A stretch of 64,000 bases of DNA from Cetorhinus maximus (Eukaryota), in the NCBI RefSeq assembly GCF_964194155.1, contig NC_135893.1, positions 65,596,001-65,660,000 of the forward strand. The letters run 5' to 3'. Shown in pieces: positions 3,175 to 61,783 of the stretch (its first letter is position 1; every line of letters begins with the position of its first letter). A program made the position numbers and the translations under genes. Under the pieces are notes generated by a model that was given only the letters and a program-made list of their open reading frames with translations, did not search any database and was not told the DNA's origin.

Positions 3175-3242
3175 AATATACTTCAATGAACTGTACCTCC
3201 TTCCCTAAAAACTATAAAGGGTAGATTTTTGATAATGAAGCA

Positions 3243-3685
3243 AAGAATTTGTATTTATGTAGCGCCATTCACAATCCCAGGAACATCCCAAAGCACTCAC
3301 CGCCAATTAAGTCCTCTTGAAGTATAATCATTCTTGTACTGTAGGAAATGCAGCAGCCAATTTACACAAAGCAAGCTCCCACAACACCAATGTGATAATA
3401 ACCAATCTCTTTTAGTGATGTTGGTTGAGGGATAAATATTAGCCAGAAAACTGTGGAGAACTTTGCTGCTTTACTTCAAAATAGCATAATCAAATCTTTT
3501 ACATCCACCTGAGAGGAGAGGAGACCTTGGTTCTCATCATAAAGACAGCACCTTCGATGGTGTAGCACTTCATGCACTAGGAGCATCAACCTAAATTTTA
3601 TGCATAAGTCTCTAGAGTGAGACTTGAACTCACACAATCTTCTAACTCAGAGGGAAGAGTCCTACCAATGAGTTACAGTTAACAC
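3243..3685 (-). mobile_element. Deu-domain SINE (SacSINE1-like)
   Basis: Tail ttgtatttatgtagcgcc, body gcaaagctcccacaac...gttggttgagggataaatatt...ttttacatccacctgag, tRNA-like head near 3600-3685. Confidence 0.75.
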
Positions 3686-13190: not shown

Positions 13191-16100
13191 TTTTTTTTAA
13201 AATTCTTTCACAGGACGAGGCCAGCATTTTTATTTCCCACCCCTAATTGCCCTTAAGAAGGTGGTGGTGAGCTGCCTTCTTGAACCACTGCAATTAATAT
13301 GGTGTATGTAGGTGCACCCACAGTGGTGTTTGGAAGGGAGTTACAGGATTTTGATCCAACAACAGTGAAGGAACGGCAAATTAGTTCTGTGAGGATGGTG
13401 TGTGACTTGGAGGAGAACTTGCAGTTGGTAGTGTTCCCATTCATCTGCTGCTCTTGTCCTTCTAGGTGATAGAGGTCACGGGTTTGGAAGGTGCTGTTGA
13501 AGGAGCCTTAGTGAGTTGCTGCAGTGCATCTTGTAGATGGTACACACTGCTGCTACTATGCGTTGGTGGTGGAGGGAGTGGATGGTGAAGGTGATGGATG
13601 GGGTGCCAACCAAGCGGGCTGCTTAGTACTGAATGGTGTGGAACTTCTTGAGCGTTGTTGGAACTTACGCATCCAGGCAAGTGGAGAGCATTCCATAACA
13701 CTCCTGACTTGTGCTTTATAGATGGTGGACAGGCTTTGGAGAGTCAGGAGGTGAGTTACTCTCCACAGAACTCCCAGCTTCTGACCTGCTCTTGCAGCCA
13801 CAGTATTTATATATCTGGTTCAGTTCAGTTTCTGGTCAATGGTAACCCCCAGGATGTTGATAGTGGGGGATTCAGTGATGGTAATGCTATTGAATGTCAA
13901 GGGGTGATGGTTAGATTCTCTCTTGTTGGAGATAGTCAATGCCTGGCACTTGGGTAGCGCAAATGTTACTTGCCACTTATCAGCCCAAGCCTGAATGTTG
14001 TCCAGATCTTGCTGCATATGCACACGGACTGCTTGAGTACCTGAGGAGTGACGAATGGTGAACCTTGTGCAATCATCAGCAAACATCCCCACTTCTGACC
14101 GTATGATGGAGGGAAGGTCATTGATGAGGCAGATGAAGATGGTTGGGCCGAGGAGACAAGCCTGAGGAACTCCTGCAGTGATGACCTGGGACTGAAATGA
14201 TTGACCTCGAACAACCACAACCATATTCCTTTGTGCTAGGTATGACTCCAACCAGCAGAAAGTTTCCCCGATTCCCATTGACTCCGTTTTCCCTAGGACT
14301 TCTTGATGCCACACTTGGTCAAATGCGATCTTGATGTCAAGGGCAGTCACTCTCATCTCACCTCACCTCTGGAGTTCATTTCTTTTGTCCATGTTTGAAC
14401 CAATGCTGTAATGAGGTCAGAAGCTGAGACACCTTGACGGGACCCGAACTGTGCATCAGTAAGCAGATTATTGCTGAGTAAGTGCCGTTTGGTAACACAG
14501 TCGCTGACACCTTCCATTACTTTGCTGATAAGACTGATGGGGCGGATTGGCCGGATTGGATTTGTCTTGTTTTTTGTGGACAGAACATACCTGGGCAGTT
14601 TTCCACTTGCTGGGTAGATGCCAGTGTTGTAGCTATACTGGAACAACTTGGCTAAGGGCACAACGAGTTCTGGAGCACAAGTCTTCAGTACTATTGTTGA
14701 ATGCACAAAGCCTTTGCATTATCCAATGCCTTCAGCCATTTCTTGATATCATATAAAGTGAATCAAATTGGCTGAAGACTGGTATCTGTGATGCTCGAGA
14801 TCGCAGGAGGAGGCTGAGATGGATCATCCACTCGGCACTTCTGGCTGAAGATGGCAGCAAATGCTTCAGCCTTATCTTTTGCACCAATGTGCTGGGCTCC
14901 CCCATCATTGGGGATGGAGATATTTGTGGAGCCTCCTCCTCCAATGAGTTATTTAATTGTCCATCACCATTCACGACTGGATGTGACAGGACTGTAGAGC
15001 TTAGATCTGATCCGCTGGTTGTGGGATTGCTTAGCTCTGTCTATCGCATGCTGCTTTCACTGTTTGACATGCAAGTAGCCCTGCTTTGTAGCTTCACCGG
15101 GTTGACACCTCATCTGTAGGTATGCCTGGTGCTGCTCCTGGCATGCCCTCCTGCACTCTTCATTGAGCCAGGGCTGATCCCCCAGTTTGAAGTTAATGGC
15201 AGAGTTGGGGATTTGCTGGGCCATGAGGTTACAGATTATGGTTGTATACAATACAATGGCCCACAGCACCTCATAGATGCCCAGTTTTGAGTTGCTAGAT
15301 CTGTTCAAAATCCATCCCATTTCGCACAGTGGTCGTGCCATACAACACAATGAAGAGTATCCTCAATGTGAAGATGGGACTTCGTCTCCACAAGGACTGT
15401 GCAGTGATCACTGCTACCACTACAGTCATGGATAGATGCATCTGCGACAGGAAGATCGGTGAGGCCGAGGTTGAGTATGTTTTTCCCTCTTGTTGGTTCC
15501 CTCACCACCTGCCACAGACCCAGTCTAGCAGCTATGTCCTTTAGGACTTGGCTAGCTTGATCAGTAGTGGTGCTACTGAGCCACTCTTAGTGTTGGATAT
15601 GGAAGTCCCCCACCAGTCTACATTCTGTGCCCTAGCCACCCTCAGTGCTTCCTCCAAGTGGGGTACAACATGGAAGAGAATTGATTTATTAGCTGGTGGG
15701 GGGGTGGAGGGGTTACATGGCAATCAACAGAAGGTTTCCTTGCTGATATTTGATGGGCTTGAGACTTCATGAGGTCCAGAGTTGATGTTGGGAACTTCCA
15801 GGGCAACTCCCTGCCGACTGTATACCACTGAGGTGCCACCACTGGTGGGTCTGTCCTTTCGGAGGGACAGGACATACCCAGGGATGGCGATGGTGGTGTC
15901 TGGAACATTGTCTGTGAGGTATGATTTCATCAGTATGACCATGACTTGACTAATCCTCAAGACAGCTCTCCCAATTTTAACACACACCCCTAAATGTTAT
16001 TAAGGAGGACTTTGCAGGGTCAAGAGGGCTGGGTTTGCCATTGTCGTTTCCAGTTCCAGAGTGATCCATCTGTTTTGATTCCTTTTTGTAGACTTTGCAG

Positions 16101-16341
16101 CGGTTTGATACAACTGCGTGGTTTGCTGGGCCATTTCAGAGGGCAGGTTTCCTTCCCTAAAGGACATTGGTGAACCAGTTGAGCTTTTACAACAATCATG
16201 ATCACTATTACTGAGACTAGCTTTTTTTAATTCCAGATTTATTAACTGAATTTAAATTCTACCAGCTGCCATGTTCCCAGAGCATCTCAGCCTCTGGATT
16301 ACTAGTCTGGTGACATTACCACTAAGATACCAGCTCCCCCA
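13191..16341 (-). mobile_element. Near full-length decayed single-ORF non-LTR retrotransposon (APE endonuclease + RT, CR1/L2-group-like) with a tRNA-derived 5' head
   Basis: EN motifs: VILMKSYLTDNVPDTTIAIPGYVL..KDRPTSGG, VREPTRGKNILNL..SSDHCTV. RT motifs: LKTCAPELVVPLAKLFQYS, DAQFGSRQG, ALDIKIAFDQVWH, GVPQACLLGP, MFADD. A-rich tail at 13191. SINE-like head at 16155-16341. Many frameshifts. Confidence 0.9.
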
Positions 16342-19681: not shown

Positions 19682-19998
19682 GGGGAGCCGATGGCATAGT
19701 AGTATTGTCACTGACTAGTATTCCTGAGACCCAGGGTAATTCTCTGGGGACCCAGGTTCAAATCCCACCACAGCAGATTTAATAAAAATCTGGAATTAAA
19801 AGTTTGATGACGACAACCATGAAACCGTCTGGTTCACTAATGTCCTTTAAGGAAGGAAATCTGCCGTCCTTACCTCACCTGGTCTACATGTGACTCCAGA
19901 CTCACTCTTAAATGCCCTCTGAACAAGGACAATTAGGGATGAGCAATAAATGCTGGCCTAGCCAGCGATGCCCACATCCCACAACGAATAAAAAAAAA
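19682..19998 (+). mobile_element. tRNA-derived SINE composed of the 5' and 3' ends of the 13191-16341 LINE family
   Basis: A box tggcatagtag, B box ggttcaaatcc, body ctggttcactaatgtcctttaaggaaggaaatctgcc, tail aattagggatgagcaataaatgctggcc...aataaaaaaaaa; inserted into a CR1 tail. Confidence 0.85.
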
Positions 19999-22299: not shown

Positions 22300-24830
22300 T
22301 TCCAAAGCAAGAGGAGTTCCTTCTACATGTGGTGTAACTCCAAAGGGAATGCTTGGTGCACCTTTTCTTGTGGATTTGTTTCCCATTTCCTGAGGTGATC
22401 TATATGCCTCCTGGTTATTTGACCTTCAACTGATATATGGTAGGACAGGGGTCCTGTCACTGCACTGTCTTCACCTGATAGCCATTTGGACCAATCTCCA
22501 AAGTTCTTCACGAAAACAGCTTCCCCTACAGTGAAGTTTCTTTCATGACTGTGGTAACCATATTCATTTTTCTGGGCCTCCTGACTTCTCTTTACCCCAC
22601 CCCCCCGACTAGATTTGGCCTTATGAGGCTTAACCATGTCCTGAGATGTCTCTTCTTTAATACCCCTGGTGTGTATCACAAAACTCTGACGCAATCTGTC
22701 TATGGTGGCAGCAGATGTGGGTGATCTCACCTTGTATACATCTATCCATTTGGAATGGGAGTTGATAAGTAAGAGGAACATTGTGCCTCACGTAGTCTTC
22801 CTGGCCATTCCCAAGGATGCAGCAGAGCAGGAGGAGGCAATTTCTGCACCTGTTGGCACTGCATGTTTGACCATGTTTTCGATTTCAGTGTCCATCCCTG
22901 GCCACCATAAGTAGCTGCGCGCCAATATTTTCATTCTGGAAATGCCGGGGTGAGGGCTACGCAATTCTATCAATAATGGTTGTCTTCCTCTGGGAGGAAC
23001 AATGACTCTCGTTCCCCACAGTAAGATGCCATCCTGGCAGATGAGCTCATTTCTCCTGTTAAAATATGGCTTCATTTTGTCCAACTTTGGCTCCTTAGAC
23101 CATCCCTGCAAGACTTGGACCCTAACATGAGACAAAACTGGATTGCGGTTGTTACATTCTCTGATCTGTTTGCATTCACTGTTGATGAATCCAAAAAATT
23201 TAATAACAAGGCATGTTCTTGAGGGATGGGGACATTCACAATGCGGTCCTTCAGGGGTAGTTGGCTCAGCACGTCAGCATTGACAATCTGGCTTACCAGC
23301 AGGTGGATAAAAGTATATTCGTAAGCAACTAAAATCAGCGCCCACCTTTGGATGCATGCTGAGGCGTTTGGGGGTTTGCCTTATCTTCCCCAAACAAGCC
23401 TAGTATTGGCTTGTGGTCAGATACTATGGTGAAGTGGCAACCATGGATGTGTTGGTGGAGTTGCTTAATGCCAAATACGATAGATAAGCCTTTTTTTACT
23501 TGTGAGTATTTTCATTCTGTCTCACTGATTGTTCTTGAAACGTAGCCAATGGGCCGTTCAGAACCATCTGACATCCAGCTGAGTGCTGCCCCTACTCCGT
23601 AAGGGGATGCATCACAGGTTAAAATCAATTCTTTCTTTGGATCAAAATGTACCAACAGGGCCGATGAGCGTAGTAACTACTTCACTGCCATAAAAGCCTG
23701 TTGTTGTGGGGCTTGCCAAGTCCACCTGTGGTTTTTCTTGAGTAACCCGTGTAATGGAGCCAATATTGTTGACAAATTTGGGAGAAAACAACCATAGTAG
23801 TTAACCATTCCCAAGAAGGACTTGAGTTCTGTGGAATTTTTTGGGGCTGGCACCTCACAAATAGCTCTCACCTTGTCTTCTACTGGGTGAAGGCCCTGCG
23901 AGTCGACCCTATCACCAGGTAAATCACTTCTTTTGCTTGGAAGATACATTTTTCCTTTTTCAAGCATATTCTGGCTTGTGAGAAATGCTTCAATACCTCT
24001 TCCAAGTTAGCCAGGTGTTCTTCATCAGTTAGTCCTGTTACTAGGACATCGTCGAGGTAAACCACTACATGGGGTAGACCTTGGAGCAAATTTTCCAAAG
24101 TCCATTGGAAAATGGCACAAGCCGATGAGACTCTGAAGGGTAGCCTGGTAAACTGGTATAACCCCATATGTGTGCTGACAGTCACAAAATCCCAAGAGGC
24201 CTTTTCTAGCTGAACTTGCTGGTAAGTGTGGCTCATGTCGAGTTTCGTATATGTGGTTCCCCCTGTCAGCTGGTGTACAATTCATCAATTTTTGGTATAG
24301 GGCGCCAATCAAGTCTGGCTACCTTAACGGTCAATTTGTAGTCCCTGCATATTCGCACACTCTGGTCAGGCTTTAGAACTGGATCCACATGGATTTTAGC
24401 TTACAACTCCTGAGTCTTCCCGAGCTCTTCCCTGAATACAGGGGCATATTTCCGTAATAATTCTTGTAGGGTTTTCATTCTGAGTTGAAAAATCTCAGTC
24501 CACTCCAACTTTATTTTCTTAAGCCAGTTCCGACCAAGTAGAGTTGGACCGTCCCCTGCTACCACTATCAGGGGTGGTTAGTAGACTGGCCTCCGTATTA
24601 TACTGGAACCTTGCATATACCTTTCACTTGTATATTTTCACCAGTACATGTCTTTAGTCTGGCAACTGAGTTTTCTAGCTTTAGTGAGTGGCCTCCTCTG
24701 TTCAGATACTTAAACGTGTGTTCTCCTATAACTGTCTATATGGGCCTGTATCCACCTCCATTTGAAGGGGTTTTCTGTTGACTTCTTACTGTCACGTAGA
24801 TTGGCTGTTTTACCCATTTTTAAATTGTGC
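22300..24830 (-). pseudogene. Gypsy pol (protease, RT, RNase H, integrase), frameshifted with deletions
   Basis: RT: GLYQFTRLPFRVSSACAIFQ, VVVYLDDVLVTG, ELKSFLGMVNYY. RNase H: LTCDASPYGVGA. Integrase: HPGISRMKILARSYLWWPGMD, FLLLINSHSKWIDV, and a GP-SY-like motif (VTGPLSY). Confidence 0.9.
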
Positions 24831-25024
24831 AGGGAGTAAATATCTGACTGTTTCTTCTGGCTCTTCCATGATATAAATTTCACGACTTCTGCCTTTTTGT
24901 TTGAACTTTGGCCTCAATCTTTCTTTAGAATATCGCATGATATGCCCATTGCGATGACAGTAGGAGCACTCAGTTCTTTTAAATTGTTGTTCGTTTGTAG
25001 GCTGTCTGGTTCCAATCCTGCTAT

Positions 25025-25061
25025 GTTCTGCTGAAGGGTCATGAGGACTCGAAACGTCAAC
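25025..25061 (+). ncRNA. Minimal type I hammerhead ribozyme motif (core variant CUGCUGA)
   Basis: gtt-CTGCTGA-a-gggtc/gactc-GAAA-cg-TC-aac: stem I gtt/aac, palindromic ACGT stem III, GUC cleavage triplet. Confidence 0.6.
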
Positions 25062-25124
25062 TCTTTTCTTCTCCGCCGATGCTGCCAGACCTGCTGAGTT
25101 TTTCCAGGTAATTCTGTTTTTGCT
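25025..25124 (+). mobile_element. 100-bp Penelope-type terminal-repeat insertion carrying a minimal hammerhead motif, nested in gag
   Basis: Flanked by 7-bp direct repeat CTGCTAT (25018-25024 and 25125-25131); homologous to 57772-57858. Confidence 0.85.
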
Positions 25125-25925
25125 CTGCTATTATGAATGTAGTTTTTATCCGTTAAGCCATTGATTTTTGTTGGTCTGTTAATGGTGGCTGTTTCCCACC
25201 TTTCCTGCGCTTCCGCACCATTTCTAGCCAGTGACTCCCTCCCGACGTGAAGAACAGCACCATTTTCTGCTCCTCTAATTTCTTCTGAGTCCCTGACGGC
25301 ACTTTCCATTGCGAGCATCAACTCCAGGGTTTTACTGAAATCTCAGACAGCAACCTTTTTGGAATGGCGCCTTCGTTAATTCCACGCTTTAATCGGTCTC
25401 TTAACATGTCATTAATAGATGTCCCGAACTCTCAGTGTTCTGTCAACTGTTTTAAGGCTGCTACATAGCAAGCGACTGTTTCTCCAGGGGCGCGGCACCT
25501 CGAATTGAATTTAAAACGCTGCGTTGTCACTGAGGGTTTCGGTTGAAAATGGCCTTTCATTAGATTCACCAACTCATCAAAGCTCTTGGAATCTGGGGCA
25601 TTGGGTGATGACAGACTGTGAATTAGGCCGCACGTCTTATTGCCACATGTCGACAAGAGGATTGCCCTCCTCTTCTCCTCCCCCGTTATGTCGTTGGCCA
25701 GAAAGAAAAACACGAGGCATTCAATATAATTTGTGACCAGTTATCGGTGGTCTGATCAAACGGTTTAATGCGGCCAAATTATGACATATTGGAGGGCGAT
25801 GGCTTCGATGACTATGGTGAGGGTTTACAATTGTATTGTACTTACAATCGGCTTGCAGGCATGGCTACATCAGTACTGTTGAGTTTTCACGGTTTTTCTT
25901 GGTGTCGTCAACTGACAGTGTTTTG

Positions 25926-26484: not shown

Positions 26485-26870
26485 TTGTTTTTTTCATTCA
26501 TTCTGGGAATATAGGTCCGGTTAACAAGGTCAGCATTTATTGTTTATTCCTGCCCTTGAGAAAGTGGTGGTGAGCTGCAGTCCATGTGGTGAAGATGCTC
26601 TCACAATGCTGCTGGGTAGGGAGTAGTGGAATTTTGACCCAGTGATATAAAGGGATAAAGGAAAGGTGATAAATGTTCAAGTCAGGATGGTATGTGATTT
26701 GGTGGTGATGGGGTCCCCATGCATCTGCAGATCCTTGGCCTTCTCGATGATGGAGATCACAGGTTTGGAAGGTCCTGTCGAAAGAGTCTTGCTGCGGTGC
26801 AGCCAATAGCTAGGATACACTGTGGTGCAAGGAATGGATGTTTCAGGTGGTGGACTGTGTCAAGTTGAGG
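26485..26870 (-). mobile_element. 3' fragment of the 13191-16341 LINE family
   Basis: ttcattcattc..cagcatttattg..gcccttgagaa.gtggtggtgagctg..caggtttggaaggt. Confidence 0.7.
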
Positions 26871-28641: not shown

Positions 28642-30036
28642 CGGCCCAGACATGTTCAACTCACTAATTTGCTAACACTTACTGTGTCAAACTAATCTCG
28701 ATGGTTGAAAAAAGGTAATGGGCCATAACTTGCAAGCTCCCCAGTATCGTATTGGGGGTACCCCAAAGGTGCACGGGCAGGTACCCCAAAGATGCACTTG
28801 GGAAATCCCCTTCAGAAGTTCCCAGGTAAAGTTTGCACGCCAACGCCCAGAAGTCCAAATTTCCCATGGGCAAATGTCCTGCACTGGGAACCATCCAAAA
28901 ATGCGATTTAAATCGCAAACTTCAGATGGTTCCACTGGGTTACATGAATTGTTAACCAGAATAAGTTAGAAAGAATAAAACCACTTCTTACTTCTGGGTA
29001 ACTATTGTACAGACCCACTGGACACTCCGACCATCTCCCTACCCCTCTGGACTACCCCTACAGCCCCCTACAACTGGCCAGGGGTCTACCCCATCCCCCC
29101 CTGACCCACCAGGGGTCTACTGCCATCCCCCAAAAACCCCCAACAGGGGCCTCCCCCAAACCCCCCAAGGTTCTCCCTCGCCTCCCTCGCACCCACCCCT
29201 GCCCACCTCTGCCCCCACCCCCCCCCCCCACTCCCCCCCCCCCCCCCTACCCCTCCCCCCACCCCACGGTCTCCACCCACCCCTCAGGACTACAACCCCT
29301 GACAGGGAGTCCCCAACTCATGGGGACTCTTCCACCCCATCGCCCACCACTGCCAGGCCCGACTCTCACCCTCATCACATCACCACACCCCGAACCCTGA
29401 CCCCTTCCGACCAGCCCCCAAAGCCCAACCCAATCCCCAACCTCCCCAATCTCTGCCACCCTCCCGTCAAGGTCCGACCTGACCCGCAACTTCCTCCCTC
29501 CGACCCCACCTCCAACCACCCACCACCTCCGAACCCCTGACCAACCCACACCTCTGACACCCCCCCCCCAACCTCCAACCAAACCACCGACCTCTGACCA
29601 ACCCCCCTAAGCTCCGACCCTTGACAACTACCCCCGACCTCCGACCACTACACCTGCCACTTTCCACCCCGGCCTCCAATCCAGTCGCTGACCTCCGATT
29701 ACCCCCCACCCCGACCTCAAATTCTAGCCCCCCACGACACCCCTCCCACTCCTCCAAATCCTATCCAATTACCTTAGACACTTACCTTCCCCCTGACAGG
29801 TCAAGGACCTTGAAACTTCAACGGACCTTTAACTTAACTGATTTAGGCAGCTAGTGTTGTAAAAAAAGGGGATATGGCCTCCTTCGCTTTGACTCAGCTG
29901 CACTTTGACACTAGGCCTCGGGAATGCGGTCTAAGTCGGAAGGTCAGGTGTAATAGGTTCAAAAAAAATTAAGGTAAGAAATTGGGCACAGCGTGGCAAT
30001 CAGACGTTGATTGTCACTCCAAGGAAGTTCAGGCCC
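28642..30036. mobile_element. Non-autonomous Harbinger-like element, family C, with a C-rich core
   Basis: Right end ggaagttcaggccc|aat; possible left AAT|cggccc. Subterminal blocks match 62590-62700 and 63130-63346. Confidence 0.6.
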
Positions 30037-38402: not shown

Positions 38403-38550
38403 TCTTTTTTAAATTCATTCATGGGATGTGGGCTTGGCTGGCTGGGCCAGCATTTATTGGTCATCCCTAATTGCCCTTGAGAAGGTGGTGGTGGGCTGCC
38501 TTCTTGAACTGCTGCAGTCTATGTGGTTTAGATACACCCACAGTACTTCC
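38403..38550 (-). mobile_element. 3' end of the 13191-16341 LINE family
   Basis: ttttttaaattcattcatgggatgtggg...ccagcatttattg..catccctaattgcccttgagaaggtggtggtg. Confidence 0.75.
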
Positions 38551-40649: not shown

Positions 40650-41548
40650 GATCCAGGGCAAGCACATTTGCAGTAAGTGTCTGTGGCTCGAGGAGCTTCA
40701 GCTCAGGGTCATTGAGCTGGAAGCCGAGCTGCAGATACTGCAACACATCAGGGAGGGGGGAATGTTGCCTGGACACTTTGTACCAGGAGGCGGTCACACC
40801 CCTTAGGATAGAGTCTTCTGATTTGGAAGGTGGTCAGACACAGGAGGGTGTGACTGCAACTGAGGCAGGTAAGGGGACCCAGAGGGCAGGAGTGCAGAAG
40901 TATCAGCCTCTGCAATTGTCCAACAGGGCTGAGGTTCTTTCAGCTTGCTTGGATGAGAGTGGGGGCTGCACAGTGGGTGAGCTGACTGACCATGGCACCG
41001 TGGTACAGGAAACCATTCAAGTGGGGAGAGCAAGAAGGAATGTGGTGGTAGTAGGGGACAGTGTAGAGAGGGGGATTGACACTGTTCTCTGCAGCAAAGA
41101 ATGAGAGTACAGACAGCTGTGTTGCCTACCCGGTGCTAGGGTTCGAGACATTTGCTCAGGGCCGGAGAGGAACTTGCAATGGGAGGGGGAGGATCCAGTT
41201 GTCGTGGTCCATGCAGGTACCGACGACATAGGCAGGACGAGGAAGGACGTTCTGCATAGTCAATGTGAGGAGCTAGGCACCAAATTAAGAAGCAGAACCT
41301 TAAAGGTAATAATCTCAGGATTATTACCTGACCCATGTGCAAATTGGCATAGGGCAAATAAGATTAGAGAAATGAATGCATGGCTCAAAGACTGGCGTGT
41401 AAGTAGTGGGTTTCAGTTTGTGGGGCACTGGCAACTGTACTGGGGAAAGTGGGGGTTGTACTGTTGGGATGGTCTACACCCGAACATTGCTGGGACCAGT
41501 GTTCTAGCAAGCCGTGTAATCAGGGAAGTAGAAAGGGCTTTAAGCTAA
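40650..41548 (+). pseudogene. CR1 ORF1 with SGNH/GDSL esterase domain
   Basis: HICSKCLWLEELQLRVIELEAEL; VVVVGDS; CCLPGARVRD; VVVHAGTDD; DGLHPN; contains a stop and a frameshift. Confidence 0.85.
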
Positions 41549-41704
41549 ACAAGGGGTGAGAGATCAAGCTTGGGTAGATGTTGCAAATCAAGGGATAGTG
41601 TCAAGGGAGGAGAGAAAAATAGTAATATGGGAAGTGAGGGTCAGAGAATGGCAGGAAAGGACAGAGAGAAAAAAACCTAAGAATACACCAACAGTCAAGG
41701 CTAG

Positions 41705-41830
41705 GGGCTGAATTTTATGGCCCCCGTCGTGGTGGGGGAGGGGCTGTAAAATGCAGAAAGCTGTTCAAAAGTCCAGACTTCAGCAGGATCGAAAAATCTC
41801 GCTGATGGGAGGGGCAGTAAAATTCCACCC
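41705..41830. mobile_element. 126-bp Harbinger-type mini-MITE
   Basis: ~20-bp TIRs gggctgaattttatggcccc / ggggcagtaaaattccaccc; inserted between CR1 ORF1 and ORF2; TSD imperfect. Confidence 0.75.
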
Positions 41831-42450
41831 TCAATGTTACAGACATAACAAAAAGACAAAACTAAAGGCTCTGTATCTGAATGCGCGCTGCATTCATAAC
41901 AAAGTAAATTAATTGATAGTGCACATTGAAGTAAATAAATATGATTTGATAGCCATTATGGACACGAAGCTGCAGAATGACAAGGATTGAGTCTTGAATG
42001 TTGAGGGGTATATGACATTCATGAAGAATAGGAAGCTAGGTAAAGGTGGAGGAGTAGCACTGTTAATCAAGGATGGCATTGGTGCAATAGCTAGAGATTA
42101 CCTTGGTTCAGGAGATCAGAATGTAGAATCAGTTTGGGTGGAGATTAGGAATAGTAGGGGAAAGAAGTCATGAGTGGGAGTGGTCTACGGGCTGTAACCC
42201 CGAACTGTATACACAATGTATGCCAAATTGTACAAGGAGAAATATTGGGTGCCTGTAAAAAAGGGTCGGCAATAATCATGGGTGATTTTAATCTACATAT
42301 AAATTGGAAAAATCAGACTGTCAGTAGTAGACTGGATGAGGAGTTCATAGAATGCTTCTGAGATAGTTTCTTAGAGCAGCACGTTCTGGAACCAACCAGA
42401 GAGCAGGTTATATTAGACTTGGTATTGTGTAATGTGACAGGATTAATTAA

Positions 42451-42803
42451 TTTTTTTTTATTCATTCATGGGATGTGGACATCACTGGCCAGCATTTATT
42501 GCCCATCCCTAATTGCCCTTGTTCAGAGGGCATTTTAAAAGCCAACCACATTGCTGTGGGTCTGGAGTCACGTGTAGGCCAGACCAGGTAAGGACGGCAG
42601 ATTTCCTTCCCTAAAGGACATTAGTGAACCAGCTGGGCTTTTACAACAATCGACAATGGTTTCATGGTCATCATTAGACTTTTATTGAATTCAAATTCCA
42701 CGATCTGCCATGGCAGAATTCGAACCCGGGTCTCCAGAGCATTACCCTGGGCCTCGGGATTACTAGTCCAGCGACAGTACCACTAGGCCATCGCCTCTCC
42801 CCG
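42451..42803 (-). mobile_element. tRNA-derived SINE (same family as 19682-19998), nested in CR1 ORF2
   Basis: Minus strand: A box tggcctagtgg, B box ggttcgaattc, junction gccctctgaa|caagggcaattagg, A tail. Confidence 0.85.
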
Positions 42804-43469
42804 TCAGAATAAAGGCACCCCTAGGTAGCAGCAACTACAATATGATTGAATTTTGCATCCAGTTTGAAAGGGAGAAGTGTGGGTCTAAGACTAGCATTTT
42901 AAACCTGAATAAGAGCTACTATGTGGGCACAAAAGCTGAGCTAGCTGCAGAGAACTGGGATACTAGGCTAGAGGATAGATTAATAGAGAAGCAGTAGCAG
43001 AATTTAAGGGGATATTTCACAATACTCAGAATAAGTATATTCCTACTATAAAGAAAAATTCTAATTTTTTTAAGAACAAGGGACAAAGCTTCCATTGGGT
43101 GTCAAGGTTCCTTTGAAATGTAAAGCAGTAGACAGAGCTTTTCATGTCACACCCATGGGCAGATGGTTCAAGAAGAGGATTTTCCATCACCTTCTCAGGG
43201 TAACTGGCAAAGAGCAATAAATCTTGCCAAGAACGAAGTATTGCCAAAATTATTCCCTTTGTTTTTTTTTGTTTTTTAACTTAGTCCCTATCTGCTTATG
43301 CTCCCTCAGCAGAGACTCTTTCTTTGTCCTACCTATGCCCCTGGTACCCACATGGAACAAGACAACTGGATCCTTCTCCCACTTGACTGCCAACAACACA
43401 CAATAGAAATATATTAACTTGCAATGTTTTATTGTTTTAAAAGATTTTTACACCACACAAAGCAGGTCA

Positions 43470-44410: not shown

Positions 44411-45239
44411 TGGAGTGAGTGAAAAAGGAGTTTGGGGGCTCTTTTGCAGAGTGTCCATTAACAATCCCTATAAGGGCAGATTAGGCTGGTCAGAGCCTGG
44501 TACAAAATGGGCATAACCTCTTTTGCACATGTTCCACTCATTTATACGAACATACAAATTATCGGCCCCTCCAGCCTGCTCTGCCATTCAATAAGATCAT
44601 GGCTGATGTGATGGCGGCCTTAACTCCACATTCTGCCTAGCCCCCGATAGATTCTTGACTAACAAGGGAGTCAGAGGTTATCTACCTCTGCCTTATAAAC
44701 ATTCAATGACTTGCCACCCCTACCAGGAAACTTTGACAGAATTCTGCGCGCAACAATGTTAACTTGAACTCATTTGCGAAATTCTGTGTTCTAAAGCGAT
44801 TTTTAAATGATCAGTTGAAATCTGAAAGTAATCAAGTGAAGGAGCTGACCTGAAACCACATCAACTGCGAACATTTATTTGCTTGCAACCATAGAAACCA
44901 CATCAATTCCAAACAGCAACTGTTCACCTGACATCATTGGTGTTAAACCCTCATGGATCAGTGATCGGCTAGCTCCAAAGTGTGCTCACAGCAAGTGCTG
45001 GCCTGTTTAAGCACTCACAGATTGAATGTTGTTAGAAATTAACTAAATCCCTAGAGCTAGCTGCAGCATAGATATAAATTGTTGTTGTAAATTAACTAGT
45101 CCCTCATGCAGCCCGCACACACACAGACACACAAACAAACACACACACCCCTGAATTTAAAGACAGCTGAACTACTTCTGTGTTTAGAATTAAAACATTT
45201 CAGACAGAGGTACCAGATATGGACTAGTATCAAGCCTAG

Positions 45240-46540
45240 TGGGGCAACTCACTGCCACCACCCACCACCACCCCCCACACCGCCCCAATTCTCCGATGCT
45301 CAACCCCACCCAAAACCCCCATCTAATCCTTCAACCCCATCCTAGCCACCATCCCCTACCCACCACCCTTACACCAAACTCCCTCTACCCCCCCGCATCC
45401 CACAGCCCACCCCCTCTATCCCACACCCCCGTCCTAGCCCCCACCCCCGTACCACACAAATGCCCAAAACCTACCACCCACTGCCCCGACCATGTTTCCT
45501 CAGCCCCCTCCTACCACCGACACCCCCAGTGCCCACCCCTCTACACCCCAATGTGCCAGCTACCCCACCCTCCTCTACACCATCCACCCCCCATAACAGC
45601 CCCCCAGCCTCTCTACTCCCTACCAGCACCCCAACACCCTCTACACCTCCCCAGCACCCCCACCTCCTCTACACCACCTCCACAGTCCCCCACCAACCCC
45701 CTCCACAAGCAGACCAACACCCACCCACCCTCTCCACAACCAGCCCCCCACTCCCCCACCCCCCAACAACCATGGCCCACCCCCTCAACAACTAGACTCC
45801 ACCCCCCTCAACAACCAGCCACCAAGCCCTCCAGCCCCACTTGAAAACCAGTCATCAAGCACTCTAACCCCTCAACAACCGACAACCACACCCCTAATCC
45901 CCATCCCCTGACAATCACCCTCCAACCCCTAATCAACCACCCCCCGCTCCCCCAACCCCCTGACAACCACACCCAGCCGCCCACCCCCAACAACCAGCTC
46001 CCTCGACAACCACCCCCCTAGCACCCCCAACCCCCAACAGGTAGCACCCCAGTCCCCAGACCCCAACCACCCCCCAGCCCTCCACTTCCCCGACAACCAC
46101 TCTCCCTCCAACAACCACACCACTGCCCCCACCCCCAACAACCGACAACCAGCTCCCGACCCCCACCCCTACGACAAGCACCCCCCAGCCCCCACTCCTA
46201 CGACAAGCACCCCCCAGCCCCCACTCCTACGACAAGCACCCCCAAGCCCCCACCCCTACAACAAGCACCCCCCAGCCCCCACCCCTACGACAAGCACCCC
46301 CCAGCCCCCACCCCTACAACAAGCACCCCCCAACAACCACTCTCCAGCCCAACAACCCAGTCCCTGACAACCACACCTCCGCTCCCCAATCCCCACAACC
46401 ACCCTCCCAACCCTACAATGAACCCCCCAGCCCCACAACCACCACCCCAGCCCCACAACCATCCCCCCCGCCCCACAACCACCCCCACCCCCCCTCCCCC
46501 ACCCCCCCGCCCCCCCAACCACCTCCCCCACCTCTCAATC
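45240..46540 (+). repeat. C/A-rich low-complexity tract containing a 29-bp minisatellite (~46160-46330, ~6 units)
   Basis: Unit cccccac(c/t)cctac(g/a)acaagcaccccccag. Confidence 0.85.
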
Positions 46541-47635
46541 CCGAGAGAGAGAGAGAGGAGAGAGGGAGAGGGATAGAGAGGGGGAGGGGGCAGAGAGAGA
46601 GACAGAGAGAGAGGAGGGAACGGTAGAGAGAGGGAGAGGGAGGGGTAAAGAGAGATAGAGAGGGAGGGATGGGAGGTAGAGAGAAAGAAAGAGAGAGAGG
46701 GGGGAGGGAAGGAGCGGGTAGATAGAGAGGGAGGGAGGGGTAGAAAGAGGAGGGATGGAGGGGTACAGAGAGAGGGGAGGAGGGGTAGCGAGAGAGAGAG
46801 TGAGAGTTATAGACAGAGGGAGAGGGAGGGAACAGTATAGAGAGAGGCAGAGAAGTAGAGGGAGGGTGGGAGGGACGGAGGTGTAGAGAGGGAGGGAGGG
46901 AGGGAAGAAGGGGTGGATATGGTGAGGGGAAGGGAAGGTTGGGTGGAGAGGGAGGGATGGAGGAAGCGGTATAGAGAGAGAGCTGGAGGGAGGGGTACAT
47001 AGAGAGAGAAAGAGAGAGAGGGGGTGGGAGGGAGGGATATAGAAAGAAAGAATGAGGGATGGGTATTGAGAGAAAGAGAGGGGTATAGAGAGAGAGGGTG
47101 GGGTATAGATAGAGAGGGAGGCAGGCAGGAAGTGCTATAGGGAGACAGGGGAGGGAGGGAGGGAGGGGTATAAAGAGAGAGGGGGAGGAAGGGGTAGAGA
47201 GGGAGGGAGGGATATAGAGAGAGAGGGAGGGAGGGAAGGCTATAGAGAGATAGGGAGGGGTAGAGAGGGATTGGGAGGGAGAGGTACAGAGAGAGAGATA
47301 GGGAGGAGTATAGAGAGAGAGAGATGAAGGGGTATAGCAAGAGAGACGAAGGGGTATAGAGAGAGTGGGAGTAAGAAGGGAGCAGTATAGAGAGAGAGAG
47401 AGATAGATAGAGAGAGTGAGGGAGGGGTATAAAGAGTGAGAGGGAGGGAGCGGTAGAGAGAGAGGGAGGGGTATAGAGAGAGGGAGAGGTATAGAGATAG
47501 AGAGGGACGGAGGGAAGGAGGGATGGAGGGAGGGGTCAAGAGGGAGGGAAGGAGGAGTGGAGAAGGAGGGAGAGGTAGAGAGGAGGGAGAGAGAGTGAGG
47601 GAGGGAGAGGTAGAGAAGGAGGGAGGGTAGGAGGG
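46541..47635 (+). repeat. Polypurine (GA/GGA-rich) low-complexity tract
   Basis: ~1.1 kb almost entirely G/A with recurring ggggtatagagagagagggag motifs. Confidence 0.9.
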
Positions 47636-47902
47636 CTGTAGGCTGACTCACAGTCCCCTGTAGGTACAATTTCAGCAGGCTCGAGGGGAAGCAGAAGGGT
47701 CCAGGCCATCAGCGCTGGGTGCTGGGTGTTGCTGGCTTACGGCAAAGGAAGTGGGATCTGGGAAGAGCTGGGGCAGGTTGGGTGTACCACAAGGTTGTTG
47801 CCATGCATTGGGCAATATATTGTTTTCTTTAAATTTTTTTATTCGCATTATATTTTTACCTTTTTCTGATCTTTCACTTTCAGGCATAAAGCTGGGATGT
47901 GT

Positions 47903-48122: not shown

Positions 48123-48305
48123 TGTTAGGAAGGGAGTTCCAGGATTTTGACACAGAGACAGTGAAGGAATGGCGAGTTAGGATGGTGTGTGGTTTGGAGA
48201 AGAGCTTGCAAGTGGCGGTGTTTCCATTTATCTGCTGCCCTGTCCTTCTAGGTGGCAGAGGTTGCGTGTTTGGAAGGTGCTGTCGCAGAGCCTTGATAAG
48301 TTGCT
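48123..48305 (-). mobile_element. Fragment of the 13191-16341 LINE family abutting the H2A pseudogene
   Basis: tgttaggaagggagttccaggattttgac...gtttggaaggtgctgtc matches 13327-13520. Confidence 0.8.
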
Positions 48306-48734: not shown

Positions 48735-49270
48735 AGCGAGTTCCAAACACACTCAACCCTCTAAGAAAAAAAATTCTAATTTCCGACTTAAATGGGAGAC
48801 TCTTTATTTTTAAACTATCCTCTAGATCTAGTCTCTCTCACACGTCCTTTCAGCATCCACCCTGTCAAGTCCCCTCAGGACTTTATATGTTTCAATAAGA
48901 TCCTCTCTTATTCTCCTAAACTCCAAAGGATATAGGCCCAAACTGTCCAACCTTTCCTCATAAGATAACCACCCCTACCATCCCAAGGATCAGTCAAGTG
49001 AACTTTCTCTGAACTGCATTTATATCCTTTCTTAAATAAGGAGACCAAAACTACACAGGACTGTAAATGTGGTCTCACCAATGCTCTGCACAACTGTAGC
49101 AAAACATCCCTAATACTATAACCCATTCCCCTTGCAATAAATGACAACATTCCATGTGCCTTCATAATCACTTGCTGTACCTGCATTCTAACTTTTTGTG
49201 ATCCCTCTGTACCTCAGAGTTCTGCAATCTCTTCCCATTTAAATAACATGCTGCTTTTCTATTCCTCCTG
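48735..49270 (-). mobile_element. CR1 RT C-terminal fragment
   Basis: QVQQVIMKAHGMLSFIARGMGYSIRDVLLQLCRALVRPHLQSCV. Confidence 0.85.
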
Positions 49271-51149: not shown

Positions 51150-51410
51150 AGAAACTATGGATTGTTGTAAAAGCCCAACAGGTTCACCTTGAGGGCCTAC
51201 AGGGAGGGAACTTGCCATCCCTACCTGGTCTCACTTTCAATGTGACTCCGGTCCTGTCCTATATACTTGATTCTTAATGCCCTCTGAAGTGGCTGCACAA
51301 ATCACTCATTTGTAAAGTTTGCAGTCCAGCGCCACTTCAGGGCACAAAGGAATGGTCAAATAAGTGCAGCCACATCAGCAGCACACATATCCAGAGATTT
51401 TTAAGAAACA
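51150..51410 (+). mobile_element. Older variant of the LINE-end-derived SINE
   Basis: ggattgttgtaaaagcccaac.ggttcac...tacctggtc...gtgactcc...aatgccctctgaagtggc, then a degenerate tail. Confidence 0.6.
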
Positions 51411-52218: not shown

Positions 52219-53059
52219 GTGAGTACATTGTAACGTTGTGGAGCGCTCGCCTGGGACGCCTGTTGGACTTCAAGGTTGAGGCGTGTGGACTGCCCTGCGG
52301 TTGAGGTGCATTGGGTGGAGGGGCAAGGGCTGCCCTGCGGTTGAGGTGTGATGGGGGGGCGGGGGGCTGCCCTGCGGTTGATGGTGGCGCAAAAGCACGT
52401 GCAGGGTGGAGTAGGGGGCACTGTGGGCAAGGGAAGTGGCCGCGTATTAAAGAAACCTTGTACAAAGTGACCATTCCTCTGCAGCTGAGACAGTTCAGGT
52501 GCAGCCAAATTGATATGATGGGAGCTGGGCCTCTAGCTTATCTGCCCATTCAAACAATGCAGAGGCATCAAAGTGCCACCAAGTGCTCCAGAGATTTCAC
52601 CCCTCGGGCACAGAGTAATGAGCATTTTAGTGGGCTGCAGAACAGTTGGACGACTGGCTACATTGTACAATCTCCTTGCTAAAGCAGGCCGTGGAGCAGT
52701 CACTGGTGGAGCTGCTCACAGCCCCTTGCAATGTTGTCATTCCAGTTTGGACCTGTCTCCCTCATGGTTCAAGCTAACAATGCAGCCTTGTAGCACAGGT
52801 TAGGAGAATGCCTGCCCTTGAGCTGATAGCATAAAATGCAGTCCAAAGCAAAGCTGCCATCAATCGGTCGGGTGAAGTGGGGCGGAGGTGAGTGGGGTTT
52901 CAGGCAGCCATTCAGCACACTAAACTCTGGCCATCCAACTGGTGCCAGCACTCTCCAGAATGTGTTCAGGGGCCTTCAGACTTCAGCAAGATAGGTTCTA
53001 ATACACCCATAACCCATATATCTCTTTCATTCATCCTGCAGGAGGGGTACATCTGGATC

Positions 53060-54260
53060 ATGGAGCCTGGCGACTTAGCTGTATGCCTCGTGGCATGCAG
53101 AGAGCAAAGACAACTGAGAAGAGAGCAACTGAGGTGCCTGGCTGCTCAGAGGGAGGAGCAACACCCTCTGGAAGAAGGGGCGGCTGGGGCTCCCACACAG
53201 TCGAAAAGCCACAGCGAGCCGTCGCTGGTTGGTGCCTAGCTAGACCCAGGCTCTATAGAAGCCGCTTTTCATTCCTGCAGATGACCATGGACCAGTGTCG
53301 CTGAAAACTGCGCATGTCTAGGGAACTGGTCGGTCACATCTACCAGCTGCGGCAGGATTTGGCACCACAGGGACATGGAGGGCATTCACTACCAGTGGCC
53401 GTGAAAGTGACTGCGGCACTCAATTTCTATGCCATTGGCACCTTTCAGGGCTCCACAGATGACTTCTATGGGATATCACAAGGCTTCACCCACAAATCAT
53501 CCATGGGGTCACCTTCGCGAGGGCACACAACTTTGTGCATTTTGCCCGGGACCAAGACAGCCAGGATGCAAAAACAACTAGATTAGTCCAGCTCTCAGGT
53601 TTCGCACAGGTGCAGGGTGCCATCGACTGCTCTCAATTGCTGCTCAGATCTCCGTCGCAACACGCAGTCAACTATGTCAACTGCAAGGGATTCCATTTGC
53701 TAAATGTGCAGCTGGTCTGCGACCACCACAAATGCATCCTACAGGTTTCCAGGGAGTGTGCATGACTACTGAATTCTCAGTCGATCACAGATCCCTGCAG
53801 GCTTCCAGGGTCCACAGAAGCTGCAGGCTTGGCTCCTGGCAACAAGGGCTACCCACAGAGGATGTGGCTAATGACACCCGTGCGGCAGTCTCAGACTGCA
53901 GCTAAGCGAAGGTTTAATGAGGCTCATGCTACAACTCACAGACCATTGGGATGCTGAAGATGAGGTTCCGCTGCCTGGACTGCTCTGGTGGAGCCCTGCA
54001 ATATAGTCCAGAGGGTGTCATGCATCATCGTCATCTACTGCACCCTTTACAACTTGGCACTGCAATGGGGGGAGGAGCTGGCTGAGGGGGAGCTGGAAGT
54101 CTCCTCCAATGAGGAGGATGCCGATGGGGATGAGGGTGAGGAGGTTCTCGAAGGCGACGATGACGGGGATGAGGCCCTTGCACTGGCTAGATGAGGCAGG
54201 AGCGCTCAAGAGGCCCTCATAGAGGCTAGATTTATGGAGGAAGACGATGACATACAGTGA
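53060..54260 (+). pseudogene. Harbinger (HARBI1-like) DDE transposase, decayed
   Basis: LPVAVKVTAALNFYAIGTFQ; VQGAIDCSQ; YVNCKGFHLLNVQLVCD; FPGSVHD; KGYP..WLMTP; FNEAH..TIGMLKMRFRCLD..ALQY; acidic tail; stops and frameshifts. Confidence 0.92.
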
Positions 54261-54959
54261 AGAGACACCATAGATCCTCACATTGCATCTATGGAAGTTT
54301 GACTACAGTCTAGCTTATGACAATGCACATACCCTCTGTGATAATGATCCAGCCATGGAGGCCCTAATAGTCGTTCGATGCCAGGACAATGATGACGACA
54401 TGCAGTGAGGACACTCCATAGATCTTCACATAACCTCTGAGGACGTCTGACTCTTGTCTGACCAAGGGCAGCTCGAATACTCTCTGTGATCAGGGTCATA
54501 TCATAGAGAAATAGCCATGAAACTTTAAAAGCATCTGATCCTTTGTCTACCTTCAGCACCTGAGCCTTTCAGGAGCACAGCATCACTGGCCACAGATGCT
54601 GAAGAGATGGGGGCCAGCTCCACCTTAAAGGTGCTGAGAGCACAAAGAGTGAATGATGGAACTATGTGACGCCTTCCCACAACATTCTGGCAGCAATGAT
54701 AAGCACTGTCGAGGTGCAGGCATCAGCACTGCGTCCAGCGAGTGTGAGGCCGTAAAATCACTTTGGTCTGAAGCTGCACAAAGCACAGGGATTAAGACAC
54801 CTGCCTTTATTTTGTAAAGAAAGGTTTCACATCTGAGTGACATGAACACTGCTCATTATAACAAGGAGCCACAGGCAGGGAGACATTCTTGGGAGTTTAT
54901 TGACAATAGTGAACAGTGTGTACAAGTGATTAGCACCTGTGCCCAGGCTGTGCATCTTA

Positions 54960-56573: not shown

Positions 56574-57204
56574 GTCTTCTTTGCAGCAGTCATGGGCTGG
56601 AAGCACTGAGAGGTGTGCGTGCAGCTGGACTTTAAATATGGCGCCCGGTGTGCTGAAGCGGCGAATGAGAGCCCGCCTGCCATGGAAATGGCGCATTTCC
56701 AGGGAATGCATAATTAATATGGCGGGCTTGGGACAATATGGCATGAAAAGCTTCTATTGCAGCCGGCTGCTACCGCGCTTGGTGCAAACCTGGGAAGATT
56801 CCACCCATGGTATTTATAGTGTTTAAAAACATAATTATTTTGTAAAATAAATGCTATATTTAGAGTAGTCCAGCAGATATTTTTTCTTCTCTACCCATAA
56901 TTAAAATTAAAGCATTACAGCAGCTGAGATCACCATTCCTCACTGGCACTACACAAAATGGAAACTTCAGTATCTGAAAAAGAATATAATCCGATTGAAG
57001 TATCTCCATTGTACTGACTTGTGAAGAAATACAACATTTATGTGCAAAGTAAGAACAATTACAATTTTAAACCAGTTTAAGCAGGTTAAATCACCGCCTT
57101 AGAATAACAAAGGCAGTAGATGCATGGTAATACCATCACCTACCAAGTTCCCCTCCAAGTCACACACCATCCCTACCTGGACACATGTCACTGTTCCTTC
57201 TTGA

Positions 57205-58794: not shown

Positions 58795-59170
58795 AAGACT
58801 TGCATTTATATATTGTCCTTCATGACCTCTGGAACCCCAAAAGCATTTTACAACCAATGAAGTACTTTTGAAGTGTAGCCATTTTTGCAACATAGCACAA
58901 CCCATTTGCGAACAAAGATTGCTACAACCAGCAATGAAATAAGTGATAGGATCACCTGCTTAGTGTGTTGTGTAAAGGGATAAATGTTGACCAGGACATC
59001 TACAGAAATCTCCTGCTCTTCTTTGAATAGTGCCATGGGATCTTTTATGTCCACCTGAGAAGGTAGATGGTTTAATGTCTCATCCAAAACATGACATCTC
59101 CAATAGTGCAACACTCCCTCAGTACAGTGCTGGAATGTCAGCCTAGATTTTGTGAAGTCTCTGGTTTGGG
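58795..59170 (-). mobile_element. Deu-domain SINE
   Basis: agacttgcatttatata...ccaatgaagtacttttgaagtgtag...cctgctcttctttgaatagtgccatgggatcttttatgtccacctgag. Confidence 0.8.
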
Positions 59171-59409
59171 TATGAATACCAATTGGGATGAGACTCACTA
59201 GGGTATGTGTGAATTTCCAGGTAATCAAGAGTTTGGGTTAGAAGATGTTAAAATAAAACCTTGAGTACAATAGCTTAATCAACAGGTTGAGACAACAGTA
59301 ATGCTAACAATCATATTTGCAAGAGTTTCAATGTCTGATATTCCAGACTTAGTGCTTCTCAGAAATTAGACAGCCCTGTAAACTGTGCTTAGCTGGGTCA
59401 AGTCACTCC

Positions 59410-60986: not shown

Positions 60987-61104
60987 TATATATTTTTCAT
61001 CCTGCGATTGAACATTTAAAAAGTAAAACGCTCTTCATTTACCTCCAGTCCTTAATAGCAATCCAGCCCAGGCTGATGAAATGAAGTTTGTTTGTCCTGC
61101 TTCT

Positions 61105-61735
61105 TTTTTTTGTTCTTTCATGAGTTTTGGGCATCGCTGGTGAGGCCAGCAGTTACTGCCCATCCCGAATTGCCCCAGAGGTGATGGTGGTGAGCCACAG
61201 TGCTATTAGGAGGGGAGTTCCAGGATTTTGACCCAGTGACAGTGAAGGAACAGTGATATCGTTCCAATTCAGGATGGTTGTGACTTGGAGGGAACATCCA
61301 AGTGGTGGTGCTCCCATTCATCTGCTGCCTTTGTTCTTCTAGATGGTAGGGATCGCAGGTTTGGAAGGTGCTGTTGAAAGAGCCTTGGTGAGTTGCTGCA
61401 GTGCATTCTGTAGATAATACACACTGCTGCTACTGTGCATCAATGGTGAAGGGAGTAAATGTTGAAGGCGGTGGATGGGGTGCCAATCAAACGGGCTGTT
61501 TTGTCCTGGATGGTGTCGGGTTTTTTGAGTGTCGTTACAGCTGCCTCATCCAGGTAAGTGGAGACTATTCCAACACATTCCCAACTTGTGCCTTGTAGAT
61601 AGTGGACAGGCTTTAGGGAGTCAGGAGGTGAATTACTCTCTGCAAAGTTCCCAGCTTCTGATCTGCTCTTGTAGCCACGGTATTTATATGGCTAGTCCAG
61701 TTCAGTTTCTGGTCAATGGTAGCCCCCAGGCTGTT
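61105..61735 (-). mobile_element. 3' fragment of the 13191-16341 LINE family
   Basis: Colinear with 13200-13860 (gggagttccaggattttgacccag...cagttcagtttctggtcaatggta.cccccagg). Confidence 0.85.
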
Positions 61736-61783
61736 AGTAGTCTTGCTGGTTGCAAGAGTTCTAATGAATTTAGGCCAGGGTAG

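Follow-up and report, generated by a model that had tools for sequence, protein, structure and literature searches.

A tRNA-like head at the 5′ end of elasmobranch Zenon LINEs and the probable origin of shark SINEs by deletion from them

In this work, we analyzed a 64,000-nucleotide stretch of Cetorhinus maximus DNA (hereafter, the window) and found in it a decayed LINE belonging to a family with a tRNA-like head at its 5′ end. The head belongs to the element in both of its subfamilies and in five published elasmobranch consensuses, as seen in their first 400 nt, and the reality of this headed-LINE architecture is practically beyond doubt. The explanation that we consider probable as a whole is that the head is integral to the LINE, that Pol III transcribes the element and that SINEs arise from it by deletion. 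A more far-reaching reading, towards which we lean with somewhat less conviction, is that of a protein-coding lineage of LINEs, retained in both sharks and rays, which would be transcribed by Pol III end to end from a tRNA-derived promoter, purged of T-run terminators down to its choice of codons and amino acids, translated without a cap or an AUG, and able to give rise to new SINE families by simple deletion.

Family assignment

The LINE can be assigned to the elasmobranch Zenon family (CR1 group), catalogued in 2026 (PMC13343379). The assignment rests on a comparison by eye, in which the first 400 nt of CarCar_Zenon-1 were nearly identical, and the lengths are 3,288 nt for CarCar_Zenon-1 and 3,282 nt for the majority sequence of our element. 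According to the accessible parts of that study (Stuart et al. 2026, PMC13343379), elasmobranch Zenon elements all lack ORF1 and end with poly(A) tails, and such tails are likewise present on the copies analyzed here. As Zenon is catalogued and all its members are ORF1-less, the LINE is a known one, and the lack of ORF1, which the initial annotation pointed out, is real but ordinary. The question of an earlier description, raised there, has to be divided in the same way: the LINE was already available as CarCar_Zenon-1 and its relatives, but the term tRNA occurs 0 times in the accessible text and supplement of PMC13343379, in which no tRNA, promoter or derived-SINE reading of Zenon was found (SINE as a word start occurs once in the text and twice in the supplement, both times in a species name). 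A whale shark preprint, in its accessible part, names CR1-Zenon once (10.1101/443036). In the literature searched, no account was found of a Zenon with a tRNA head or with Pol III transcription, and relative to it the presence of A and B boxes in a tRNA-like head at the Zenon 5′ end is new; since Repbase, Dfam, SINEBase and most subscription papers lay outside the search, an earlier description is possible.

The LINE and its relatives in the window

Element coordinates (nt) refer to the 3,282-nt majority sequence built from 30 copies, which has a single 975-codon frame encoding an endonuclease (EN) and a reverse transcriptase (RT), an A tail and no ORF1. The following features were distinguished in the window:

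13191..16339, minus strand: decayed full-length headed Zenon LINE, subfamily B type
16267..16339, minus strand: tRNA-like head of this LINE (A box 16329-16319)
16135..16266, minus strand: 5′ UTR body common to the LINE and the SINEs, with copy-specific 12-nt and 66-nt deletions
16008..16134, minus strand: leader, ATG-GCC-(TAG in most copies; CAG in this one), then a CpG-rich stretch
13243..16007, minus strand: broken EN-RT frame with 16 frameshifting indels; Pfam RVT_1 at 13820-14359
13191..13242, minus strand: 3′ UTR with AATAAA (~13234-13229), a short T-run and an A tail
61104..61741, minus strand: 5′-truncated copy (3′ end) of the same LINE
38405..38544, minus strand: 3′-end fragment of the same LINE
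48123..48305, minus strand: fragment of the same LINE
26713..26803, minus strand: fragment of the same LINE
57100..57172, plus strand: fragment of the same LINE
19682..19998, plus strand: SINE type I (nt 1-292 joined to 3217-end); A box 19692-19702, B box 19755-19765, junction 19923/19924
42451..42803, minus strand: SINE type I; A box 42790-42780, B box 42726-42716, junction 42522/42521; apparently lies within a CR1-like element
51151..51410, plus strand: old 5′-truncated deletion derivative (nt 152-318, then ~3197-3270)

The full-length LINE copy is ~88% identical to the subfamily A majority overall, and its first 1.9 kb is closer to the B majority (89.7%) than to that of A (87.6%). It is dead, with 16 frameshifting indels in its frame, a 66-nt deletion in its body and no B box, the latter removed by an 18-nt deletion between 16276 and 16275. 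The initial annotation equated its 5′ end with the head and body of both SINEs, and the matching pieces are indeed 79–92% identical (E 1e-6 to 1e-18); they are, however, not contiguous with the SINE head, as the LINE copy has lost 18, 12 and 66 nt. Likewise, the tRNA head with A and B boxes described there exists in the family majority and in both SINEs, but its B box is missing from the LINE of the window. The claim that there is no room for an ORF1 was borne out: the EN motif lies only ~140 nt past nt 292, so ORF1 is absent from the element. An ORF1 in other copies, named as a possible refutation, was found in none of those examined. Pfam Exo_endo_phos_2 and RVT_1 were matched in natural copies of the element, the endonuclease domain being found in copy L043.

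It is also worth mentioning that in one copy (L067) an internal ~700-nt LINE segment is repeated in tandem, and that pieces of the LINE ORF are contained in predicted shark gene models (P0040, P0041, P0043, P0046, P0056, P0063, and P0071), where they are probably annotation artefacts or cases of exonisation.

The tRNA-like head

In the majority sequence the A box occupies nt 11-21 and the B box nt 75-85, and the element start is fixed 10 nt before the A box. ARAGORN run at a relaxed threshold read the majority head as tRNA-Thr(AGT) with a long variable arm; at default settings it reported 0 genes in the 64-kb window. Compared with 22 tRNA sequences of five types from the same genome (Ser and Leu not among them), the head was best matched by Thr(TGT) (z 7.9), and on these matches the donor isotype can be named only provisionally. 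Rfam searches with eight decayed copies matched neither a tRNA nor a ribozyme. Pairing is poor in the acceptor and T stems of the head; the anticodon-arm and variable-arm hairpins look conserved, by eye, among the five elasmobranch consensuses. Judged by these sequence features, the head is tRNA-derived and is not a tRNA gene.

The head as an integral part of the LINE

A head-free query (leader plus EN start) gave 5,576 candidates in the genome, 40 of which were scored. As the initial annotation predicted, other copies carry the head: all 39 scored copies other than that of the window have head sequence at the same junction. Nineteen of the 40 start no more than 16 nt from the first base of the element and the remainder are 5′-truncated or have deletions, and in a second set, collected with a query including head sequence, 25 of 30 starts were complete. 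The flanks upstream of the scored copies do not align with one another. On this evidence, the head belongs to the LINE. The leader pattern had 2,859 exact matches in the genome (reversed control, 0).

An unbiased census was made in an 844-kb fixed-position sample (780 kb plus the window), in which 93 elements made up 6.3% of the bases. Head sequence was present in 30 of them, namely 8 continuing into the LINE, 8 SINEs of the 292 type and 2 of the 315 type, 6 elements with other breakpoints, 2 with shorter deletions, and 4 fragments; in none of the 30 did the head lead into a foreign tail. All eight LINE copies extending upstream of nt 300 have the head, and 61 of the 63 elements without a scored head start at nt 747 or later. 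By eye, the head also starts the CarCar, RhiTyp, ScyCan, SquAca, and HypSab Zenon-1 consensuses, as judged from their first 400 nt.

No head was found within the visible first 400 nt of the hagfish and coelacanth Zenons, and L268, the nearest relative lacking the head, is a further headless Zenon. Therefore, the head was gained at some time, and one ancient capture by a Zenon is the likely origin of the LINE structure; the head would probably have been taken up a single time in an ancestor of the elasmobranchs, its source being a tRNA or an older SINE.

Reading frame and translation start

Coding constraint acted on the single EN-RT frame during its evolution: of 26 lineage-level variants from nt 431 on, 18 fall at third positions. 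The same variants gave no coding signal in any frame in nt 302-430, and the CpG-rich stretch of the leader is without coding signal across the family. ATG-GCC-TAG is conserved at nt 293-301 and is in frame with the ORF in most copies. Codon 73 is ATG in 17, ACG in 11 and ACA in 2 of 30 copies, a CpG-decay pattern, and because it is such a mixture, the first solid in-frame Met is codon 291, past the EN start, with no open in-frame ATG earlier. In the headless L268, an ATG shortly precedes the EN motif and the upstream DNA is T-rich.

The lack of an open in-frame ATG before the endonuclease would fit an uncapped RNA. By analogy with R2, we infer non-AUG, cap-independent initiation near the EN motif, which is the weakest step of the proposed scheme. 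The need to translate a 3.3-kb uncapped RNA counts against the explanation as a whole, and so does the leader, with no coding signal in any frame. Two other starts were considered. Read-through of the TAG is not favored: a sense codon replaces it in 13 of 66 copies, but a second in-frame stop occurs in 10 of 66, the leader lacks synonymous bias, and two published consensuses look, by eye and in the part visible, out of frame. A frameshift from the ATG at nt 348 was rejected, as all eight non-CpG lineage variants are non-synonymous in that frame.

Within nt 293-347, the visible part of the five elasmobranch consensuses shows conservation of ATG-GCC-TAG together with the 15 nt after it, though this block is apparently non-coding, and the spacer that follows the block has two common lengths, 27 and 24 nt.

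T-runs and transcription of the LINE

The shortest Pol III terminators are TTTT and TVTTT, as given in the accessible part of PMC8466645, and because Pol III stops at them, the sense strand of a LINE transcribed by this polymerase should lack them. The sense strand of the 3,282-nt majority contains 0 TTTT, 6 TTT, no TVTTT and no interrupted T tract, compared with 47, 49, and 41 runs of three or more A, C, and G, respectively. Within the ORF, 4 TTT were observed, whereas shuffling of synonymous codons gave 13 (as few as observed in 0 of 2,000 shuffles), and Phe, mostly encoded by TTC, makes up 1.85% of residues. TTTT depletion alone, tested against the codon shuffles, was not significant (P of 0.07–0.08); the signal rests on TTT, Phe content and outside controls. 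No TTTT occurs in the first 1.85 kb of subfamily B, and even the decayed LINE copy of the window has just one.

A same-genome control was the CR1 family of the fragment at window positions 48880-49220 (minus strand; 7,206 candidates), whose majority, built in the same way, has 16.7 TTT/kb (1.4 in the element), 3.9 TTTT/kb and 3.8% Phe; among natural open frames of the same genome, the medians were 6.0 vs. 15.8 TTT/kb (8 vs. 9 frames, p = 0.0003). As further controls, 80 metagenomic non-LTR loci were used, of which 16 were excluded from the T-run count for want of a long clean ORF. None of the remaining 64 ORFs is as low as the element in TTT/kb, TTTT, Phe percentage or observed/expected ratio, and all have some TTTT (medians: 21.8 TTT/kb, 7.4 TTTT/kb and 5.0% Phe; minima: 3.7, 1.2 and 2.6), the comparison being one in which the nearest control is only 37.5% identical to the element, the controls are not phylogenetically independent and none is a close headless Zenon. 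The element is T-poor overall (20%), and the one control of 64 that is similarly T-poor (L270) has 3.7 TTT/kb and 1.9 TTTT/kb. An A/B-like box match in a single control of the 64 (L319) was taken as chance, the locus being T-run-rich. Four presumed-RNA contig sets cover the head and ORF; as contigs carrying no strand, start or level, they count neither way.

The lack of T-runs is likely the expected footprint of Pol III transcription, and we judge that Pol III probably transcribes the LINE. The polymerase would start at nt 1, which lies ten bases ahead of the A box, and would read through the LINE because the terminators were purged; the uncapped RNA may then be translated from a non-AUG codon close to the EN motif, and the LINE protein would recognize the 3′ tail and insert copies by target-primed reverse transcription.

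Against this stands the view, expressed in the accessible part of Kojima (2024, PMC10886601), that Pol II serves non-LTR retrotransposons whereas SINEs depend on Pol III, which restricts their length. The strongest alternative, which we regard as unlikely but of real weight, accordingly retains an integral head and has Pol II make the full-length LINE RNA from an internal promoter or by read-through, the tRNA-like fold serving RNA processing, stability or translation and Pol III mattering only for the SINEs. It agrees with the general treatment of LINEs as Pol II transcripts (PMC10886601 and PMC5786205, in the parts available) and with the conserved-looking anticodon-arm and variable-arm hairpins, which point to a role at the RNA level (five consensuses, by eye). 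The AATAAA before the A tail suits it as well, although this motif also occurs in Pol III-transcribed SINEs of the T+ class (PMC8466645, accessible part). What it does not predict is the T-specific depletion of sense-strand runs across the ORF, the start fixed 10 nt before the A box, or the loss of an in-frame ATG.

Origin of the SINEs

The SINE families consist of LINE nt 1-292 or 1-315 followed by the last ~66 nt. As first described in the initial annotation, both SINEs of the window jump from LINE 5′ sequence to the LINE end (nt 1-292 to nt 3217); the older copy at ~51 kb does have another breakpoint, reaching nt 318 and resuming at ~3197, but it starts at nt ~152 and is without the tRNA part. 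In the genome, at least 3,047 exact junction matches were counted for the 292-type SINE, at least 2,587 for the 315 type including its sub-variants, and at least 19 for later breakpoints, some of which recur; rare SINEs keep still more of the LINE leader and more of the ORF end. These elements share their tail with the partner LINE, are non-coding, measure a few hundred nt and exist in many copies. They consist only of LINE 5′ and 3′ ends, as SIDEs do, but, unlike SIDEs of the Persaeus type, they have a small-RNA-like head and a putative Pol III promoter.

In a tree of 84 heads, group A gathered all 30 SINE-I, 25 of 28 LINE and 4 of 26 315-pattern (type II) heads, and group B 22 of 26 315-pattern and 3 of 28 LINE heads, the window copy among them; the A/B split had support of 99/100 in a bootstrap that was not fully converged. 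Thus, the large SINE families pair off with separate LINE subfamilies, each with its own. Most differences between the LINE majorities of A and B lie at third positions (25:7:8 at codon positions 3:2:1), so both subfamilies were coding sources. The several breakpoints and the subfamily pairing uphold the proposal that the SINEs are deletion derivatives of the LINE; repeated deletion is the simplest reading of their sequences, and we hold it to be very probable. Since a deletion retaining nt 1-~300 and the last ~66 nt would keep both promoter and tail, its product should work as a SINE at once.

Shared target-site duplications, expected at complete copies in the initial annotation, are mostly absent: duplications of at least 5 nt were found in 2 of 47 complete SINE and LINE copies vs. 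0.8 in shuffled pairings, which is no clear excess, in copies that are ~10% decayed. According to the accessible part of PMC11481361, not all curators demand target-site duplications of SINEs.

The reverse order of events, in which ordinary tRNA SINEs with a Zenon tail came first, LINE subfamilies repeatedly captured heads by template switching and the present SINEs are the donors, has in its favor that module exchange among SINEs is well described (PMC4824008 and PMC5499810, accessible parts), that headless Zenons exist (hagfish and coelacanth in the first 400 nt, and L268), and that the SINE-I and SINE-II junctions show no clear microhomology. It is nevertheless quite improbable, because SINE-I lacks nt 293-315, which both LINE subfamilies kept, and so cannot have donated the head of LINE-A; moreover, rare SINEs hold more of the LINE leader and ORF end, and the census revealed no head with a foreign tail. 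Weakest of all, the chance insertion of a SINE before a truncated LINE at this one locus, for which the window copy's head being more broken than the SINE heads could be cited, is rejected as next to impossible in view of the junction common to 39 of 39 other copies, the 2,859 leader matches and the head in the visible consensuses of five species.

Other elements of the window

A decayed Gypsy-type LTR retrotransposon remnant occupies ~22300-25750 (minus strand; Pfam RVT_1, Integrase_H2C2 and a weak PNMA (gag-like) match). The CR1-like element at ~40650-43000 (plus strand), in which the SINE at 42451-42803 appears to lie, has a GDSL esterase ORF1 remnant at 41105-41548, and the fragment at 48880-49220 (minus strand) is from an abundant CR1-like family. 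A Harbinger/PIF-like transposon remnant was distinguished at ~52900-56800, with a weak DDE_Tnp_4 match at 53463-53762; the long frames near that match had no Pfam match. What looks like another SINE family is present at ~58850-59240 (minus strand), and we presume it to be SacSINE1/Deu-like. Long C-rich low-complexity tracts at ~45200-47700 and 28950-29600 yield many spurious ORFs.

Significance

If true, the favored explanation would break the working division into Pol II LINEs and Pol III SINEs and would provide a natural case of a translated 3.3-kb Pol III RNA; should both Pol III transcription and translation be demonstrated, it would come near to a new category. It also offers a one-step, testable SINE birth, by deletion from a head-bearing LINE and not by fusion of a tRNA with a LINE tail. 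With 6.3% of the 844-kb sample occupied by these elements, their heads must also be taken into account when repeats and tRNAs are annotated in sharks and rays. Counting T-runs is an inexpensive way to look for further Pol III LINEs, with RTE-1_DAn as the first one to try.

Comparison with known systems

R2 retrotransposons produce an uncapped non-Pol II RNA that is translated without a canonical AUG; they are site-specific, and a ribozyme cuts their RNA from a Pol I rRNA co-transcript. The uncapped, non-AUG translation proposed for the shark LINE would resemble that of R2, which differs in the Pol I co-transcript, the ribozyme and the site specificity.

The closest known elements, as far as the accessible sequences go, are the elasmobranch Zenon LINEs themselves (CarCar_, RhiTyp_, ScyCan_, SquAca_, and HypSab_Zenon-1; PMC13343379), which are of the same family. 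The tails of the shark LINE and SINEs, with AATAAA (often AACAAA in SINE-II), a variable T-run and an A tail, resemble those of the mammalian T+ SINEs B2, Dip, and Ves (PMC8466645, accessible part); however, T+ SINEs have been reported only from mammals and are non-coding, and TTTT or longer occurs in only 14 of 80 shark LINE and SINE tails, many SINE-II having AACAAA. Named shark SINEs include HE1, SacSINE1, and CmiSINEs, the latter two with L2 tails (PMC4824008 and PMC5499810, compared by the accessible descriptions only), and SINEs of bivalves use Zenon tails (PMC11481361, accessible part).

Retroelements with Pol III promoters derived from small RNAs are also known in Cassandra, Helenus, and Ajax (PMC10886601, accessible part), which, unlike the shark LINE, are LTR elements not exceeding ~1.3 kb, non-autonomous and devoid of protein-coding capacity. 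A possible precedent is a LINE containing a tRNA-like sequence, RTE-1_DAn with its relatives, mentioned in the accessible part of PMC5786205 without position or function; it belongs to another clade, and the literature search found no paper describing the tRNA-like sequence in it.

Short elements built from Zenon 5′ and 3′ ends, which arose several times, were described as Persaeus, a SIDE of lepidopteran Zenon (Wang et al. 2019, PMC6740152). In the accessible part of that paper, Persaeus has neither tRNA homology nor a Pol III promoter, whereas the shark deletion product is, by its structure, a canonical tRNA SINE. The same order of parts as in the shark SINEs (tRNA head, LINE 5′ part and LINE 3′ part) is found in the bipartite RTE/Vingi-derived Bov-tA, CoeSINE4, and SINE2_Gav (Kojima 2018, PMC5786205, accessible part). 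In the model given there, template switching adds the head to an already deleted element, whereas in sharks it is the autonomous LINE that bears the head.
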